From UHGV virus genome UHGV-0374175: a DNA stretch of 15,745 bases; one strand, 5' to 3'. Origin of the DNA: a virus. Shown piece after piece: positions 526 through 15,745 of the stretch. The position numbers were made by a program, and so were the translations under genes. The notes below the pieces were generated by a model. That model saw nothing but the letters and a program-made list of their open reading frames with translations. It ran no database searches and was not told where the DNA came from. How positions within the stretch are numbered: position 1 is the stretch's first letter; each line of letters opens with the position of its first letter.

Positions 526-1182
526 CTATTTAACATACTTGACTGTTAAACTTATAATTTTACCAATTATTTCAATGTCTTCTATCTTGCATTCGAAGGC
601 TCTGTTTCCACCCTCGACGAAGATTCTTCCACCGGGTAAACGAGTAATGTCACGGATCGTTATTTCGCCATCAATACTTATTACCCATTTACCATCACGT
701 ATATCATCAAATTCTTTATCACAAATAAATTCAGAATTGTTATCTGTGATGACAAAAGGTTTTTTAAACGTAGAGGGTAGAAATCCCTTATCAAAAATAT
801 AAAAACCGTCTTTCTGCAATGCTCCATCAGACAATAAATATTTTTCTACTTCTATAGTATTTGTATTTGCTGATGCTTGCTTTGAACCATGCCCTGTTGT
901 TAGCCAATTAAGCGAGGTGCCCGTTTCAAGGGCGCACTGGATTACCCAATCTGCTGGAAAAATATCACGCATATAGCGCGTTGCCATGGTGCTCTTAGAA
1001 ACACCTAAATGATCACAGAGAGCCTGACGAGTACCGAACCCATATGCTTCAACTAAACGTTCTATGGCTTTCTTACCGCCGCTATTGAAATCCACAAGTC
1101 CTCCAAAGAAATCCAAAATTCGTTGACAGATTCCAAAAGCGATCTTAAAGTTGAACCAGAAGTGTTCTTTTGGAGCCTTCAC
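526..1182 (-). CDS. cI: Phage 186-type CI immunity repressor
   Basis: The ORF contains ...LVEAYGFGTRQALCDHLGVSKSTMATRYMRD...CALETGTSLNWLTTGHG, which fits my recollection of the N-terminal HTH region of coliphage 186 CI. It is transcribed divergently from the apl/cII early operon. The true start may be the internal GTG at 1095, which is preceded by GGAGGA and would give about 190 aa; the longest ORF starts at ATG 1182. Confidence 0.75.
   Translation of the reverse strand: MKAPKEHFWFNFKIAFGICQRILDFFGGLVDFNSGGKKAIERLVEAYGFGTRQALCDHLGVSKSTMATRYMRDIFPADWVIQCALETGTSLNWLTTGHGSKQASANTNTIEVEKYLLSDGALQKDGFYIFDKGFLPSTFKKPFVITDNNSEFICDKEFDDIRDGKWVISIDGEITIRDITRLPGGRIFVEGGNRAFECKIEDIEIIGKIISLTVKYVK
1123..1151 (+). 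promoter_or_regulatory. Candidate sigma70 early lytic promoter (pR-like)
   Basis: TTGACA at 1123-1128, a 17-nt spacer, then TAAAGT at 1146-1151, upstream of the apl-like gene. It would lie in the intergenic region only if cI starts at the GTG at 1095. Confidence 0.35.
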
Positions 1183-1240
1183 TACTAATCACGACAAACA
1201 ACGGCTCGCCACAAGCCATATCTAGAAGGAATGTTGCCTT

Positions 1241-3082: not shown

Positions 3083-3309
3083 TGGCTGATGCAATGGATC
3101 TCGTACAGCAGCGCGTTGAAGAAGAACGCCAGCGCCATATCCGTGCTGCCCGTGCCAAAACACCGGGCGTGTCTCGCGTGCTTTGCATTGAATGTGAAGC
3201 GCCAATTCCGCCAGCACGCCGCCGCGCCATTCCAGGAGTGCAGCTTTGCATTACCTGTCAGGAAATCGCAGAGCTGAAAGGCAAACATTACGACGGAGGT
3301 GCTGTATGA
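3082..3309 (+). CDS. TraR/DksA-family C4 zinc-finger protein (P2 Orf82-like)
   Basis: 75 aa with CIECEAPIP...CITC, a 4-Cys zinc-finger signature. GGAG lies 8 nt upstream of the ATG. This is the conserved position upstream of the P2-family replication gene. Confidence 0.8.
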
Positions 3310-3608
3310 CAGGGGCTGTGCGTATCCATCAATTAAAAATTGCACCTAAGTATTTCAACGCTGTGGTTGCAGGTCAAAAGACGGCTGAACTTCGTAAAGA
3401 CGATCGTGGCTATAAAGTTGGTGATGTTCTTTCTCTTTGCGAATGGAAGCATGGCGTATTTACGGGTAGGGAATGGGCCGCGGTTATCTCTCATGTGCTT
3501 CCGGTTAATGACGTCATGGCAGTTTCAGAACAATGGGTGATGCTATCAATTCGCTCATTAACCCCATTAGAAGCTTTAGGATATGTTATTGCAGGAGGTG
3601 CTGTATGA
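3306..3608 (+). CDS. ASCH/PUA-like small protein (DUF3850-like), hypothetical
   Basis: ATG at 3306 overlaps the upstream stop (ATGA) and is preceded by GGAGG. The 100-aa product [33 protein letters not shown]... resembles ASCH-domain proteins often found next to phage methyltransferases. The tracked ORF start at 3246 is probably too far upstream. Confidence 0.6.
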
Positions 3609-7690: not shown

Positions 7691-7719
7691 TTGCCTTATA
7701 TCTATTTGTTCATTAAAAT
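7691..7719 (+). promoter_or_regulatory. Candidate sigma70 promoter for the retron ncRNA/operon
   Basis: TTGCCT at 7691-7696, 17-nt spacer, TAAAAT at 7714-7719, at the left edge of the AT-rich island and upstream of the palindrome and RT gene. Confidence 0.4.
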
Positions 7720-7725
7720 CATTAT

Positions 7726-7925
7726 GCTCTTTAGTGTAGGAACATTGGTTCCAGCCGGGTGATTAGCCAGGCTTAAATTTATTGTCCGGTTTAGGGTTGC
7801 GAAAGACACAGATTTCTCCTTCGCATCCCTGCCCGGGGCAGATATGCGAAGGAGAAATCTGTGTCTTTCGCTGTCTTTAGTGAAGAGTCAAAGCGCTATG
7901 TAAAGTTGCATAGCGCTTTGGTTTT
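7726..7925 (+). ncRNA. Putative retron msr-msd non-coding RNA (boundaries approximate)
   Basis: Non-coding stretch immediately upstream of a retron-type RT. It contains a 28-bp perfect inverted repeat (the likely msd template stem) and a second 12-bp stem-loop before the RT start. I could not identify a convincing a1/a2 inverted-repeat pair or the branching G by eye, so the ends are not defined. Confidence 0.45.
7799..7871. repeat. 28-bp perfect inverted repeat with 17-nt spacer (probable msd stem-loop)
   Basis: GCGAAAGACACAGATTTCTCCTTCGCAT (7799-7826) is the exact reverse complement of ATGCGAAGGAGAAATCTGTGTCTTTCGC (7844-7871). The spacer itself contains the palindrome CTGCCC-G-GGGCAG. Confidence 0.9.
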
Positions 7926-7937
7926 AAGAGGGGTTAT

Positions 7938-8873
7938 ATGCAACTAACTTCTAAAATTATCAGTAAGTTTAATTATAATAGATTAGCTTTCCAATTACTT
8001 TTAAATGAGGCCCCCAAAAAATATAAAGTTTATTATATTCCTAAACGTGGCGCAGGTTTTCGGGTGATAGCTCAGCCGACAAAGGAACTAAAAAACGTAC
8101 AGAGATTTATAGTATCTTTGCTACAGCCAAAGCTGCCTGTTCATCATAAGGCAATGGCATATGAATATAAAAAAAGTATTAAAGATAATGCATTGTTGCA
8201 TAAAGATAATAATTATATTCTTAAAATGGATTTTCAGAACTTCTTTAACAAAATTAAACCTGATATATTTTTCTCGAAACTTGAGAACACAGGGCTGAAA
8301 TTGGATTCATTTGATGAGAACACCCTACGTAATTTGCTTTTTTGGCGTCCGGGAAAAAAGAGAAGTACAACGTTGATATTAAGTGTAGGGGCGCCAAGCT
8401 CACCATTTATTAGTAATTTTGTTATGTATGACTTTGACAAGAGTCTTGATGATTGGTGCCGTAACAATGGTATCACTTATTCAAGGTATGCAGATGATAT
8501 AACTTTTTCAACTAATATTAAGGATATATTGTGCAGGGTTCCTAAGGTGGTAAAAAAAATGTTGTCGCTCCATGTTCCCGGTCTATCAATCAATGAATCT
8601 AAAACAATTTTTACATCGATGGCTCATAATCGGCACGTGACTGGTGTAACACTTACACCTCAGGGCAATTTATCAATTGGTCGCGATCGTAAAAGGATGC
8701 TGTTTGCAAAGATTCATAAATATTCTTTGGGACTCTTATCTTCCGAAGAAATAAATAAAACCAAAGGGATGATTGCGTTTGCAAATTATTTGGAGGGTGA
8801 TTTTTTATTAAGGTTACAAAAAAAATATGGTTGTGAGTTAATAACTAAGTTCCTGATGGAAGGAAACAAATAA
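7938..8873 (+). CDS. ret: Retron-type reverse transcriptase
   Basis: 311 aa. RT active site YADD (YSRYADDITFS), retron-typical motif NRHVTGVTL (NAxxH / VTG), and RT motifs such as VGAPSSPFISN. GAGGGG RBS. Preceded by structured non-coding DNA. Confidence 0.92.
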   Translation: MQLTSKIISKFNYNRLAFQLLLNEAPKKYKVYYIPKRGAGFRVIAQPTKELKNVQRFIVSLLQPKLPVHHKAMAYEYKKSIKDNALLHKDNNYILKMDFQNFFNKIKPDIFFSKLENTGLKLDSFDENTLRNLLFWRPGKKRSTTLILSVGAPSSPFISNFVMYDFDKSLDDWCRNNGITYSRYADDITFSTNIKDILCRVPKVVKKMLSLHVPGLSINESKTIFTSMAHNRHVTGVTLTPQGNLSIGRDRKRMLFAKIHKYSLGLLSSEEINKTKGMIAFANYLEGDFLLRLQKKYGCELITKFLMEGNK

Positions 8874-10507
8874 TGATAAATAAAATGAATTTAGAGACTT
8901 GCTATGTTGATTTTTTAGAGTTGGAATCACATGTGATAAACGAGGATTATTTGAAGGAGTCTGTTGAGCTTCAAAAGCTAATATCTACTTTAAATGAGAG
9001 TAAGTTTCATTTAAATAAAATAGGTATACATGATTTTAAACGGATAAGAGAACTACAGATTTCCTTAGAAGATGATTTGACTGTTTTTGTCGGGGATAAC
9101 GGATTCGGTAAAAGCACTATTTTGGATGCAATAGCAATTGTTTTGAGTTGGTTGAGATCAAATATTGAAAAGGAGAGTAAGCCTGGTACTTATATTAAAA
9201 GCCATGAAGTTAATAACTCTGTTGATGTTGAGTATGCATCAATTGATGCAAATATAAAACTTAAGGACTTTAATACCAGTATTTTGATTACTAAAGCGAA
9301 AGAGGGGGCATATTATTCTAGAAATAATGAATTGTTGGAGGTAAAAAAACTTGCAAGTATTTATAGACTTGTGAATAAATATGTTGATAATGCAAGCTTG
9401 CCTTTGATGGCATATTATTCTATTGCGCGTTCTTATATAGGCGGTGGGGTTGATAGGAAAAGAAAAAATGCTAAAACTAAAACTGTATGGTCAAAATTCG
9501 ATGTGTATGATGAAATCGAGTTTGACAGAAATGATTTTACCGATTTTTTTCAATGGCTTGTATTTCTTCATAACAGAGCTTCACAAGAGAAATTGAGTGA
9601 GTCACAAACGACAATCAATGCGTTATTTTCAGATATTCAAAGTTTGAAAGCAACATTAACTCAACTATCTGCGATTGATAATATTGATTCAACAGTTATA
9701 AAAGGTTTAGAGCTTTCGCTTAAAGAAAAATTGAACTACATGAAATCTCTGCAATCAGGAGAACATAAGTTTAATAATGCAGTATCACTTTATGATAGTG
9801 TTATAAATACCATTCTAAAGTTCTTGCCTGAATTTCAGTGGATTAAGCTTGTTTATGGTGATGATGATTATAAGATTATCCTTAAAAAAGGAGAGGTTGA
9901 ATTAGATGTTCAACAGTTGTCTCAAGGTGAGAAAACTATATTTACTTTAGTTGGTGATTTGGCTCGACGTTTAATTTTACTTAATCCAAATTTATCTAAT
10001 CCTCTATTGGGATATGGGATTGTTTTAATTGATGAAATTGATTTGCATTTGCATCCGCAATGGCAACAGACAATTATTGAGCGTTTGACATCTACATTCC
10101 CAAATGTTCAATTTGTAGTTACTACCCATAGCCCACAGGTTTTATCCACTGTTAGCTCTCGTTCAGTGCGTATTCTACAGGAAGTGGAAGTAGATGGTGT
10201 TAATGATTTGATAGTGTCTCACCCCGACTATCAAATAAAAGGTGTTAGTAATCAGGATGCACTTTTATATGGAATGAGAACTGATCCTATACCCTCTACT
10301 AAAGAAAATGGTTGGCTTGAAGAATATAAAAAATTGGTTGAGCTTAATCGTTATAGCAGTGACGAGGCTCTTTTGTTAAGAGAAAAAGTTATTAAACATT
10401 TCGGATTAGACCATCCTTTAGTTCAAGAGTGTGATGATCTTATATCTGTTTTGGAGTTCAAAAATAAGATAAATCAGCACTTTTCTGGAAGTAAGGATGT
10501 AAAATGA
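8873..10507 (+). CDS. ABC/SMC-like ATPase (Septu PtuA-like retron effector)
   Basis: 544 aa. Walker A GDNGFGKST, ABC signature-like LSQGEKTIF, Walker B VLIDEIDLHLHP, and a long helical middle region. Its start overlaps the RT stop (TAATG). Confidence 0.85.
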   Translation: MINKMNLETCYVDFLELESHVINEDYLKESVELQKLISTLNESKFHLNKIGIHDFKRIRELQISLEDDLTVFVGDNGFGKSTILDAIAIVLSWLRSNIEKESKPGTYIKSHEVNNSVDVEYASIDANIKLKDFNTSILITKAKEGAYYSRNNELLEVKKLASIYRLVNKYVDNASLPLMAYYSIARSYIGGGVDRKRKNAKTKTVWSKFDVYDEIEFDRNDFTDFFQWLVFLHNRASQEKLSESQTTINALFSDIQSLKATLTQLSAIDNIDSTVIKGLELSLKEKLNYMKSLQSGEHKFNNAVSLYDSVINTILKFLPEFQWIKLVYGDDDYKIILKKGEVELDVQQLSQGEKTIFTLVGDLARRLILLNPNLSNPLLGYGIVLIDEIDLHLHPQWQQTIIERLTSTFPNVQFVVTTHSPQVLSTVSSRSVRILQEVEVDGVNDLIVSHPDYQIKGVSNQDALLYGMRTDPIPSTKENGWLEEYKKLVELNRYSSDEALLLREKVIKHFGLDHPLVQECDDLISVLEFKNKINQHFSGSKDVK

Positions 10508-11187
10508 AATATCTATCTAGGCAAATGCCAGGGCCTTCCGTTCTTAATAAATTTGACTATAGGAGGGATGATTGGAATTCCCTATCATCAAATGATAAAA
10601 AAGAAATATGGGAAGAAATAATAAAAATGCAAGGTAAATTATGTGCTTATTGCGAGAAAAAAATAGAGCATCATAAAAGTGGTGACAAAAATAAAGTTGA
10701 GAGGCATATTGAGCATTTTTACAGGAAAAGTTATTACAAAAATTTAACTTTCGAGTGGTCTAATTTGTTTGGCTCATGTGGTGAGCCGCAAAGGTGTGGG
10801 TTTTATAAGGATAAGCAAAAATATAACGATGATGATTTAATTAAAGCTGATAGACAAAATCCAGATGTTTTTTTCCATTTTTTGGAAAATGGTGATGTTC
10901 ATATTAGAGAAGGCTTGAATGAGAAAGAACACAAAATGGCAGAGGTTACGTTAAGAGTATTTAACTTAAACCCGTCCTCAGGAGGAGTCAAGGCGGAAAG
11001 AAGACGTGCAATAGAATTAAGCATGACATTAATAAAGGAACTGGTCGGATGTGCATCTCAGCTTATTGAATCAGGATGTGAAATTGAAGATGTTAGATCT
11101 ATGGTCTTTGATGAGTTTAAAAAGAATGTAAAAGATAGATGCTTTACCACTGCGATAAAGCATGTTTTTGAGAATAGAATGCCTTAA
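10504..11187 (+). CDS. HNH endonuclease (Septu PtuB-like retron effector)
   Basis: 227 aa with CAYCEKKIEHH...ERHIEHFYRKS...NLFGSCGEPQRCGFY (Cys pairs plus His-rich HNH core). Its start overlaps the ATPase stop (ATGA). Confidence 0.85.
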   Translation: MKYLSRQMPGPSVLNKFDYRRDDWNSLSSNDKKEIWEEIIKMQGKLCAYCEKKIEHHKSGDKNKVERHIEHFYRKSYYKNLTFEWSNLFGSCGEPQRCGFYKDKQKYNDDDLIKADRQNPDVFFHFLENGDVHIREGLNEKEHKMAEVTLRVFNLNPSSGGVKAERRRAIELSMTLIKELVGCASQLIESGCEIEDVRSMVFDEFKKNVKDRCFTTAIKHVFENRMP

Positions 11188-12242: not shown

Positions 12243-13081
12243 AAAATCTCCACAATATTGCTGGTATTGGCGGACTCGCCCTGCAGCGGTTCGTTAAACA
12301 GTGCGTGCATTGTTGCCCAGGCCAGATCGGCATGGCTGGCTTCTTCACTGCGGCTTGCTTCATAGGTCGGGCGGTTGCCGCTGGCGGTGGTTGCGCGACG
12401 GATTGCCATAAATGACTGCGCTATGTCGGTGTGTCCGGCGTCAAACTCCAGACGACGGTGACTGATAATGTCGTAGGCCTTGAGTACCAGGGCGTTTTTA
12501 ACGTTGGGGTTGTAGACAAACTCCCGGACGGCTGGAAAAAACGCTTTCACGTTTTCATAAACCCCGTGACCGACACCCGTCGAGTCGATGCCGATATAGG
12601 TCACGTTGTACTGTTCGGTCAGTTTTTTGATGGCGTCAGCCTGGGCGCGGAAGTCCATCCCGCGCCACTGGTGACGCTCAAGAATGCGGAACTTACCGCC
12701 CGGCACGGCTGGCGGTGCCACCACCACGCATCCGGCGCTGTCGCCGTTTTGCGTACCTTTTGCCGGGTCATAACCGATCCACACCTCGCGCCAGCCAAAC
12801 GGGCGCAGGGCCAGTGCATGAAAGTCGGTCCAGACTTCCCAGCTGTCCACCATGCACGCCTGCAGCTCGCTGAGCGGGAACACGGACGCGAGATCGTCCA
12901 CGAACTCGCACATCAGCAGGTTCTGGTATTCGTCCGGGCTGTACTCCATGCGCAACTGGTCAAGGTCGAACAGGTTACAGCCGCCGCGCACCGCATCTTC
13001 CACGGTGACTATCTGGCGGTATTGCCCGTCTGCGCACAGCAGGCCGGGGGCCAGATTGCTATGGGACAGGTCGATGTCCAC
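12239..13081 (-). pseudogene. P: Terminase large (ATPase) subunit, P2 gpP family: C-terminal fragment only
   Basis: The 280-aa ORF (reported start is a GTG) is directly upstream of and coupled to Q. The frame is open upstream to a stop at 13172-13174 with no ATG/GTG/TTG start in between, so the N-terminal ATPase half is absent. The upstream side abuts a baseplate-J fragment on the other strand. Confidence 0.75.
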
Positions 13082-13120
13082 CTTGTCGGCTTTGTTGCGT
13101 CCACGGTTGAACAGCGCACC

Positions 13121-13711
13121 GGACCAGAACGGATACCGCCCGTTGCGGCTGTGATGGAAAGTGATGAAGCGTTACGCCTGCGTGTGCCTGCAGCCTTTGA
13201 AGGGCTTTCTGTTGCTGGGCCAACTGCCGCTTATGAGTTTCATGCACGAAGCGCCGACGGTCGGGTGGCGGATGCCAGTGCAACCAGTCCGGCACCTGCA
13301 GAGGTGGTGCTTACGGTCCTAAGCCGTGAAGGCGACGGAACAGCAGAAAAAGACCTGCTGGATGTGGTGGAGAAAGCCCTGAACAGTGAGAACGTCCGCC
13401 CGGTGGCTGACCGTCTGACGGTTCGCAGCGCGGAAATCATCCCGTACCGCGTGGAAGCCACCATTTTTCTCTATCCGGGGCCGGAAGCAGAGCCGGTAAT
13501 GGCAGCGGCAAAAGCCAGCCTGCAGAGGTACATCGCCAGTCAGACGCGGCTTGGTCGGGATATTCGCCGTAGCGCCATTTTTGCCGCGCTGCATGTTGAG
13601 GGTGTTCAGCGTGTGGAACTGGCTTCCCCGCTGGCGGATGTGGTCATGAACAAAACGCAGGCGGCATCATGTACGCAGTGGAGCGTGACCAACGGGGGTA
13701 CGGATGAATAG
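13121..13711 (+). pseudogene. J: Baseplate assembly protein J (P2 gpJ family): C-terminal fragment
   Basis: ...IPPVAAVMESDEALRLRVPAAFEGLSVAGPTAAYEFHARSADGRVAD...GRDIRRSAIFAALHVEGVQRVELASPLADVV... matches the C-terminal two-thirds of P2 J as I recall it. The N-terminal part is missing. The 5' portion of the tracked ORF (12431-13120) is antisense to the terminase fragment and is not J. Confidence 0.75.
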
Positions 13712-14309
13712 TCTGCTGCCACCGGGTTCAACGCCACTGGAGCGCCGACTGGCGCAAACCTGCAGCGGGATTTCTGATCTGCAGGTGCCGCTGCGTGACT
13801 TGTGGAATCCGGCAACCTGTCCGGTCAGTTTCCTGCCTTATCTCGCCTGGGCGTTCTCTGTGGATCGCTGGGACGAGGGCTGGACAGAAAGCGTCAAACG
13901 TCAGGTGGTGAAGGATGCTTTTTATATTCATCAGCATAAAGGAACCACCAGTGCCGTGCGGCGGGTGGTGGAGCCGTTCGGCTTTCTGATCCGCATTATT
14001 GAGTGGTGGCAGACCGGAGAGGCACCGGGCACGTTTCGTCTGGATATCGGCGTGCAGGACCAGGGCATCACTGAAGATACCTATCTGGAACTTGAGCGAC
14101 TGATAAGCGATGCCAAACCATGTAGCCGTCACATGATCGGCATGTCCATCAACCTGCAGACCAGCGGCCCGCACTGGGTGGGAGCCGCCAGCTATCTTGG
14201 CGAAGAAATCACGATCTATCCGTATATCAACGAAACAATTATTTCCGGCGGCACCGCGCATGAAGGCGGGGCGGTCCATGTTATTGACACAATGAGAGTG
14301 AATCCATGA
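13704..14309 (+). CDS. I: Tail/baseplate protein I (P2 gpI family)
   Basis: 201-aa ORF immediately after J, with its stop overlapping the start of the H-like gene (ATGA). This is the J-I-H order of P2-family tail operons. Confidence 0.8.
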   Translation: MNSLLPPGSTPLERRLAQTCSGISDLQVPLRDLWNPATCPVSFLPYLAWAFSVDRWDEGWTESVKRQVVKDAFYIHQHKGTTSAVRRVVEPFGFLIRIIEWWQTGEAPGTFRLDIGVQDQGITEDTYLELERLISDAKPCSRHMIGMSINLQTSGPHWVGAASYLGEEITIYPYINETIISGGTAHEGGAVHVIDTMRVNP

Positions 14310-15607
14310 GCACAAAATTTTATACCCTGCTGACGGATATTGGCGCGGCGAAACTTGCCAGCGCCGCCGCGCTCGGTGTGCCGCTAAAAATTACCCATAT
14401 GGCGGTGGGCGATGGCGGCGGAGTATTGCCGACGCCGGACGCAAAGCAGACTGCACTGGTAAATGAGAAACGCCGGGCTGCGCTGAATATGCTCTATATC
14501 GACCCGCAGAACAGCAGCCAGATTATTGCTGAACAGGTGATCCCTGAAAACGAGGGCGGTTGGTGGATACGTGAAGTGGGCCTGTTTGATGAGTCAGGGG
14601 CATTGATTGCCGTGGGGAACTGCCCGGAAAGCTATAAACCGCAACTGGCTGAAGGCAGCGGGCGCACCCAGACCGTGCGCATGGTGCTGATTACCAGCAG
14701 CAAGGAAAATATCACCCTGAAAATCGATCCTGCTGTAGTGCTGGCAACCCGCAAGTATGTGGATGACAAGGTACTGGAGCTGAAGGTGTATGTGGATGAC
14801 CTGATGGCAAAACACCTTGCCGCACAGGACCCACATTCACAGTATGCACAGAAAGAAAGTCCGACGTTTACCGGGAAACCCAAAGCGCCAACGCCAGCAG
14901 CAGGGAATAACACCACGCAGATTGCGACCACCGCGTTTGTTCAGGCGGCACTGATAGCCCTTATTAATGGTGCGCCAGCCACACTGGATACGCTGAAAGA
15001 AATTGCCGCTGCCATTAATAATGACCCGAAATTCAGTACCACCATTAACAATGCGCTGGCACTGAAAGCGCCGTTGTCGAGTCCGGCACTCACCGGAACG
15101 CCAACAGCCCCCACGGCGGCGCAGTCGGTCAACAATACACAGATTGCCACTACGGCTTTTGTGAAATCGGCGATTGCGGCAATGGTGGGTTCTGCACCTG
15201 CGGCACTGGATACACTGAACGAACTGGCGGCGGCGCTGGGGAATGACCCGAACTTTGCCACGACAATGCTTAATGCACTGGCAGGTAAACAACCGCTGGA
15301 CAATACGCTGACTAATTTGAGTGGAAAGGATGTAGCTGGTCTTCTCACATACCTTGGTTTGGGAGAAGGTTCGGCATTACCCGTTGGTGTGCCTGTTCCG
15401 TGGCCTTCAGCCACACCGCCTACTGGCTGGCTGAAATGCAACGGTGCGGCTTTTTCTGCTGAAGAATACCCGGAACTGGCAAAGGTTTATCCGACAAATA
15501 AATTGCCTGATTTACGCGGTGAATTTATTCGTGGCTGGGATGACGGACGTGGAGTGGATGCCGGGCGACAATTATTATCTTCACAGGGGGATGCAATAAG
15601 AAATATT
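14306..15607 (+). pseudogene. H: Tail fibre protein H (P2 gpH family), N-terminal ~434 codons, truncated by IS1
   Basis: N-terminus MSTKFYTLLTDIGAAKLASA... and internal repeats (NNTQIATTAFV... twice) are typical of P2-type tail fibres. The reading frame runs into IS1 sequence from 15608, so the C-terminal receptor-binding part is missing from this locus. Confidence 0.8.
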
Positions 15608-15745
15608 GGTAATGACTCCAACTTATTGATAGTGTTTTATGTTCAGATAATGCCCGATGACTTTGTCATGCAGCTCCACCGATTTTGAGAACGACAGCGA
15701 CTTCCGTCCCAGCCGTGCCAGGTGCTGCCTCAGATTCAGGTTATG
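15608..15745 (-). mobile_element. IS1 insertion sequence, terminal part (continues beyond the window)
   Basis: 15608-15745 is the reverse complement of the IS1 end as I recall it (…CATAACCTGAATCTGAGGCAGCACCTGGCACGGCTGGGACGGAAGTCGCTGTCGTTCTCAAAATCGGTGGAGCTGCATGACAAAGTCATCGGGCATTATCTGAACATAAAACACTATCAATAAGTTGGAGTCATTACC), including the terminal inverted repeat GGTAATGACTCC. Confidence 0.9.
15623..15745 (-). CDS. insB: IS1 transposase InsB, C-terminal part (partial at window edge)
   Basis: The minus-strand frame encodes ...[41 protein letters not shown], with the stop codon complementary to 15623-15625. Confidence 0.8.

Follow-up and report, generated by a model that had tools for sequence, protein, structure and literature searches.

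In the DNA analysed here, 15,745 nt of UHGV virus genome UHGV-0374175 (hereafter the window), the tail-fibre gene H of a P2-like prophage is interrupted by the insertion sequence IS1. We found that the H reading frame keeps its first 434 codons (14306 to 15607, plus strand), and that the right-hand end of an IS1 element in the opposite orientation occupies the last 138 nt (15608 to 15745, minus strand) and runs off the window. The gene is a truncated member of the P2 gene H-type tail fibres and should be annotated as a pseudogene interrupted by IS1. It represents an ordinary step in prophage decay.

The identity of the inserted sequence was established by a sequence search of complete E. coli genomes. 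All 138 bases from 15608 to 15745 were identical to IS1 (E = 3e-65), and matches covering at least 80% of the query occurred in 4958 of 5426 genomes, at a median of 10 places per genome. The features lying under these matches were annotated as 'IS1-like element IS1A/IS1B family transposase'. The match is real, its coordinates are exact and it is far beyond chance. As a reference for the IS1 boundary we used the complete 768-bp IS1A in E. coli EC6563 (L002), the termini of which are set by its 9-bp target duplication; no mismatch was found between the same end of that element and the 138 nt of the window. From 15608 onward the window reads GGTAATGACTCCAACTTATTGATAG..., and its first 23 nt (15608 to 15630) are the right terminal inverted repeat, GGTAATGACTCCAACTTATTGAT, exactly as at the end of the EC6563 element. 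This 23-bp repeat is present precisely at the boundary with the flanking H DNA. Translation of the minus strand revealed the 3' end of insB (15623 to 15745), with its last 40 codons and stop; 15 nt separate this stop from the end of the element, and the terminal repeat covers them and overlaps the 3' end of insB. The transposase genes of IS1 are antiparallel to H. Isoform typing is not possible from the 138 nt of IS1 that are visible; a complete element has 768 bp and both terminal repeats, with insA and insB joined by a programmed -1 frameshift. A sequence-only reading of the same DNA had claimed that the H frame is replaced at 15608 by the IS1 repeat and the InsB C-terminus in reverse, and it was borne out in each respect: identity to IS1 was complete, InsB was recovered from the minus strand, and the frame continued past 15608 with IS1 codons rather than tail-fibre sequence. 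In fact, the listed open reading frame (14306 to 15688, plus strand) is a 460-aa H-IS1 fusion in which 26 IS1-encoded codons and a TGA stop at 15686-15688 are appended to H (15608 to 15688, plus strand), and no tail-fibre homology was found in the 26 IS1-derived residues.

The native part of H comprises the N-terminal tail-collar-fibre domain (PF12571 at aa 1-150, E = 2.6e-64), the shaft and the first part of the collar/tip domain (PF07484, Collar, at aa 361-408), and it has no indels relative to H of E. coli PK8568 (L001). Directly upstream lies the baseplate/tail gene I (13704 to 14309, plus strand), which carries PF09684 (Tail_P2_I) and is annotated as 'phage tail protein I' in PK8568 and in the intact related prophage L006; domains of J were also recognised upstream of H in the window. 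The gene order is V-W-J-I-H-G in PK8568 and EC6563, and V-W-J-I-H with only a fragment of G in L006. Considering this order, and the position of H after J and I, the window reading frame is the orthologue of P2 gene H. The retained 434 native codons compare with about 504 in intact relatives (504 aa in PK8568).

The breakpoint was located by comparison with uninterrupted genes. PK8568 was 96.5% identical to window positions 13136-15608, without indels, and the alignments of all 58 E. coli genomes covering the region ended at query positions 707-709, corresponding to 15606-15608 of the window. At the junction, intact H of PK8568 reads ...AAGAAATATT followed by GAGGGATTCGCAG, while the window reads ...AAGAAATATT followed by GGTAATGACTCC. 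The G at 15608 is common to H and IS1, which leaves the breakpoint ambiguous by one base. PK8568 represents the empty target: ...GCAATAAGAAATATT passes into GAGGGATTCGCAG without interruption, and the sequence across the insertion site is continuous (...GATGCAATAAGAAATATTGAGGGATTC...).

The consequences for the fibre were assessed from the missing residues. In PK8568 there are 70 of them: EGFADGGIGMSFDAIRGAFYDAGTRSARMPNNTTTIDKTDDLGFDASRVVPTANENRPRNIAFNYIVRAA. The frame departs after aa 434, and the complete C-terminal collar/tip domain, which ends in ...RPRNIAFNYIVRAA, is absent. Residues 356-502 of intact H aligned as a single block to the solved short tail fibre 9cuy (E = 2e-31). The tip of T4 gp37 (2xgf) aligned with intact H at aa 356-432, the N-terminal part of the collar, and again at aa 486-504, the final strand. 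Judged by these homologies, the cut would take away the variable insert together with the conserved C-terminal strand that completes the collar/tip, the putative receptor-binding domain, and the shortened protein is not expected to build a functional receptor-binding tip. The proposal that the receptor-binding region had been removed is supported, with qualifications: homology indicates that the collar/tip domain is cut, but only the last ~70 of ~504 codons are affected, and only in the orientation seen here.

How the element came to lie there is best explained by simple transposition, and we consider it probable that IS1 moved into the 3' part of H between codons 434 and 435, with its transposase genes directed against H. 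Under this proposal, an IS1 copy would have transposed into the 3' part of H in a P2-like E. coli prophage and would have duplicated the AT-rich target AGAAATATT. IS1 duplicates 8-10 bp of its target, in most cases 9 bp. The 9 nt adjoining IS1 in the window (AGAAATATT, 15599 to 15607) are the predicted copy of the target-site duplication, and the corresponding intact target in PK8568 reads ...AAGAAATATTGAGGG. The rest of H would resume 768 bp later, as AGAAATATT and then GAGGGATTCGCAGATGG...; the predicted far side consists of the IS1 left end, AGAAATATT and GAGGGATTC..., and the junction between the IS1 left end and H is expected to read ...AAGTTGGCAGCATCACC followed by AGAAATATTGAGGG. The H frame runs into the right end of IS1 and stops after 26 foreign codons, and its product lacks the last ~70 residues. 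IS1 insertions are polar on downstream genes, and the gene exposed to such an effect here would be the chaperone gene G. Phage production would not be affected, as the prophage has also lost the 5' half of P, the capsid and lysis genes, V and W, part of J and the beginning of the H operon, and IS4 lies just upstream of the place of int. Overall, the event would amount to neutral erosion of a prophage remnant by insertion sequences of the host.

Three observations favour simple insertion. The G+C content around the target was 35% (20 nt) versus 53% for the whole gene; IS1 prefers AT-rich targets, and the site fits this preference. A comparable IS1A insertion in H of EC6563 is flanked by a clean duplication. 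In a survey of the LTEE, all IS moves without deletion gave target duplications, including five IS1 events (bioRxiv 10.1101/2024.06.02.596822). Based on the EC6563 analogue, the AT-rich target and the LTEE duplications, we therefore favour simple insertion with reasonable confidence and assign a clearly smaller, though not negligible, likelihood to an IS1-bounded rearrangement.

In the latter case, the visible IS1 would be the edge of a larger rearrangement, produced by an IS1-mediated adjacent deletion or inversion or by recombination between two IS1 copies, and the distal fibre segment, the chaperone genes, the invertase and the tail genes could be lost or located elsewhere. Several features are compatible with such an event. 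All four contigs that bear the junction stop within IS1, so that nothing of the far side is visible. An 8.1-kb deletion is already present in the remnant, and IS4 stands at its opposite edge, with the result that both contig ends are insertion sequences. Moreover, the decayed prophage of FORC_082 shows several independent deletions, one of which truncates H, and IS-linked deletions without target duplication are known in other IS families (bioRxiv 10.1101/2024.06.02.596822). On the other hand, the junction sits in AT-rich DNA of the kind that IS1 typically enters by simple insertion; EC6563, where alone a similar element can be followed to its far end, has a simple insertion flanked by a 9-bp duplication; and five of five IS1 events in the LTEE data were simple (bioRxiv 10.1101/2024.06.02.596822). 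A rearrangement is thus a realistic but less likely origin of the junction, and simple insertion is retained as the preferred explanation.

The far side of the element was sought in several collections. The H-IS1 junction was found neither in the 5426 complete E. coli genomes, nor among GTDB species-representative genomes (exact 46-mer), nor in JGI metagenome contigs (exact 39-mer). When the 70 missing C-terminal residues served as the query of a protein search, only short partial proteins at contig edges, without IS1, were returned. The closest of these, P0001 and P0005 (the latter starting at the break), were considered as the far side of IS1 and rejected: both lie at contig starts and carry no IS1, and we attribute these contig breaks to the passage from conserved to variable fibre sequence rather than to IS1. 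Contigs of several draft E. coli genomes (L007-L011) likewise start at H codon 435 or 438, at most 3 codons from the IS1 site, with no IS1. These breaks suggest that conserved collar and variable insert meet at a mosaic (recombination) boundary, at which assemblies are also interrupted.

It is very improbable that only a solo IS1 end is present, left from an older insertion that was later truncated. Such a reading is consistent with the fact that 138 nt are all that is visible, but those 138 nt are 100% identical to active IS1 copies, and the contig ends some k-1 bases after entering the repeat, as would be expected of a de Bruijn assembly running on into a multi-copy element. The same behaviour is apparent at both edges of the window, which hold 140 nt of IS4 and 138 nt of IS1, each approximately k-1. 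The window ends are therefore best regarded as repeat-induced contig breaks, at which a de Bruijn path would have met a multi-copy repeat, and not as biological ends. The exact H-IS1 fusion protein occurred on four contigs only, of 10-20 kb, in ENA metagenome assemblies with names of the form k141_..., and these were 99.98-99.99% identical to the window and all ended no more than 138 nt into IS1. The junction recurred in contigs that had been assembled independently, from at least two additional ENA samples. An assembly chimera, conceivable for a short-read metagenome contig (k141_...) with repeats at both ends, was rejected as having practically no likelihood, since the junction lies 138 nt inside the contig and must be spanned by real 141-mers, and since it is repeated identically in separate contigs of at least two other samples at 99.98-99.99% identity.

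IS1 is not the only lesion of this prophage, in which cI, the replication gene A, a cargo operon, the portal gene Q and other P2-like genes were recognised. Mapping by BLAST to L006 placed a deletion junction between terminase P and J at 13135 to 13136: window position 13135 equals position 21410 of L006, and 13136 equals 29553. The 8.1 kb lost comprise the head/capsid and lysis genes, R and S, and, with V and W, the beginning of the V-W-J-I-H-G operon. The two sides meet in a blunt junction that shows neither microhomology nor an IS scar, and J is fused there to the 897 nt at the 3' end of terminase gene P, which lies on the minus strand. What remains of the baseplate gene J is a 3' fragment without the first 333 nt, or 111 codons (13136 to 13711, plus strand; mapped to PK8568 and L006). 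The listed 426-aa open reading frame at 12431-13711 is a chimera made by this junction. In P2, transcription of H starts at the late promoter that precedes V; the region of this promoter is deleted, and H has therefore lost its own promoter. At the opposite edge, positions 1 to 140 are an IS4 end (98.7-99.3% identity to annotated IS4 copies), as delimited by the junction relative to L006. Its terminal repeat, CTTAACTGACTGGCATTA, ends at 140, and IS4 adjoins the prophage 10 bp upstream of the position of the integrase start codon in L006. With IS4 in this place, int has either been separated from the sequence upstream of it or been lost. IS1 had been counted as the second inactivating event, a number that has to be raised: with the IS4 end (1-140) and the deletion between 13135 and 13136, it is at least the third. 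IS1 would have hit a gene already unable to make a working tail if the deletion preceded it. Three further blocks of the window (1068-1227, 2181-2440 and 3309-3594) showed no or low similarity to relatives that are otherwise 97-98% identical; these blocks of the immunity/early region reflect the ordinary mosaicism of P2-like early genes.

The cargo of the prophage is intact. A three-gene defence operon (7938-11187, plus strand) occupies the P2 cargo hotspot between the replication and portal genes and encodes a retron type I-A reverse transcriptase (311 aa), a PtuA-type ATPase (544 aa) and a PtuB-type HNH nuclease (227 aa). In the annotation of relatives the retron operon is assigned to the St85/Ec78 family. 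Just upstream of the reverse transcriptase gene, within 7700-7937, there is a near-perfect hairpin of ~73 nt (7799-7871, plus strand; fold z-score -11.2) with short flanking repeats, which is probably the msr/msd non-coding RNA of the retron. An Rfam scan of the whole window at gathering thresholds gave 0 matches, and the retron non-coding RNA therefore falls outside the curated families.

The 3' part of H belongs to an invertible segment in related prophages. PK8568 and EC6563 contain a 27-nt site, TTCTCGCATACCTTGGTTTGGGAGAAG, inside H, and an inverted partner site 1.8-2.7 kb off, adjoining a 'recombinase family protein' gene. Between the two sites are two oppositely oriented chaperone genes and a C-terminal fragment on the reverse strand. 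When the segment was inverted in silico, in-frame alternative H proteins of 468 and 473 aa were obtained in these relatives, and we therefore interpret the arrangement as a host-range switch of the Gin/Cin/Pin type. The inversion in the relatives would exchange a collar-type C-terminus for a gp53-like domain. Phase variation of invertible tail-fibre segments has been reported in P2-like prophages of EPEC (PMC4272514). In the window, a crossover site of the Gin/Cin/Pin-type invertases, TTCTCACATACCTTGGTTTGGGAGAAG (15342 to 15368), with 1 mismatch to the PK8568/EC6563 site, marks the left edge of the segment, and IS1 lies 239 nt past it, within the segment. By comparison with these relatives, IS1 breaks the C-terminus that is now joined to the constant part of H. 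Since the relatives have an alternative C-terminus at the far end of the segment, loss of the tip is shown for the orientation seen here and for that one only. It is conceivable, although we hold it rather doubtful, that the knock-out of H depends on orientation, and that the remnant is kept for its intact retron type I-A operon while insertion sequences erode the virion genes. If this were true, and if the segment and the invertase survive beyond the window, a flip would give the constant part of H an intact alternative C-terminus and put IS1 in the silent arm; IS1 would then disable one of two host-range states and not the fibre as such.

IS insertions in the tail-fibre genes of prophages are commonplace. 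IS1, the P2-type H and the invertible segment are all standard, and nothing in the window departs from known biology. The value of the observation lies mainly in annotation, as the prophage can be described as a defective remnant with three lesions, namely the IS4 end, the 8.1-kb deletion and IS1. It also illustrates neatly how insertion sequences of the host erode the structural genes of a P2-like prophage whose defence cargo (retron type I-A, PtuA and PtuB) is intact. This agrees with the established view that P2 hotspots are defence islands and adds nothing new to it.

Compared with known systems, the window resembles four of them to different extents. With IS1 (IS1A/IS1B) of E. coli and Shigella it shares the 23-bp right repeat and the 3' end of insB, identical over 138 nt, as well as an AT-rich target, and no difference exists in the visible part. 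The closest analogue of the insertion is the IS1A in H of EC6563 (NZ_CP095856.1, L002 4327-5094), which interrupts the same gene in the same orientation within the invertible variable part and also truncates the collar/tip. That element is complete (768 bp), is flanked by the 9-bp duplication CAAACGATG and is followed straight after by the remainder of H; from this clean duplication it follows that simple IS1 insertions occur in this gene region. It is an event independent of that in the window, in another allele of the variable region and ~118 nt further 3' (nt 1420 versus nt 1302 of H). In the EC6563 prophage, moreover, V, W and J are annotated as intact, and the gene normally found immediately before V is replaced by one for a non-phage AAA ATPase. 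That IS1 has hit the variable 3' part of H on two separate occasions hints at a favoured target region, although two cases are no evidence of a hotspot.

The invertible segment has its counterparts in the G/Gin system of Mu, C/Cin of P1, P/Pin of e14 and the P2-like prophages of EPEC E2348/69, in which a constant N-terminal fibre part is combined with a crossover site within the gene. PK8568 and EC6563 are like those systems in having alternative C-termini, which have chaperones of their own, and a serine recombinase gene alongside. The window differs from them in that it shows no more of the segment than the left crossover site and 239 nt, and in that IS1 lies inside the segment. Finally, the decayed P2-like prophage of E. 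coli FORC_082 (NZ_CP026641.1, L003) has its backbone and its retron type I-A cargo in common with the window (98% identity) and has likewise suffered internal deletions of structural genes and truncation of H. It differs from the window in its deletion end-points, in having no IS1 in H and in an integrase that is still adjacent.
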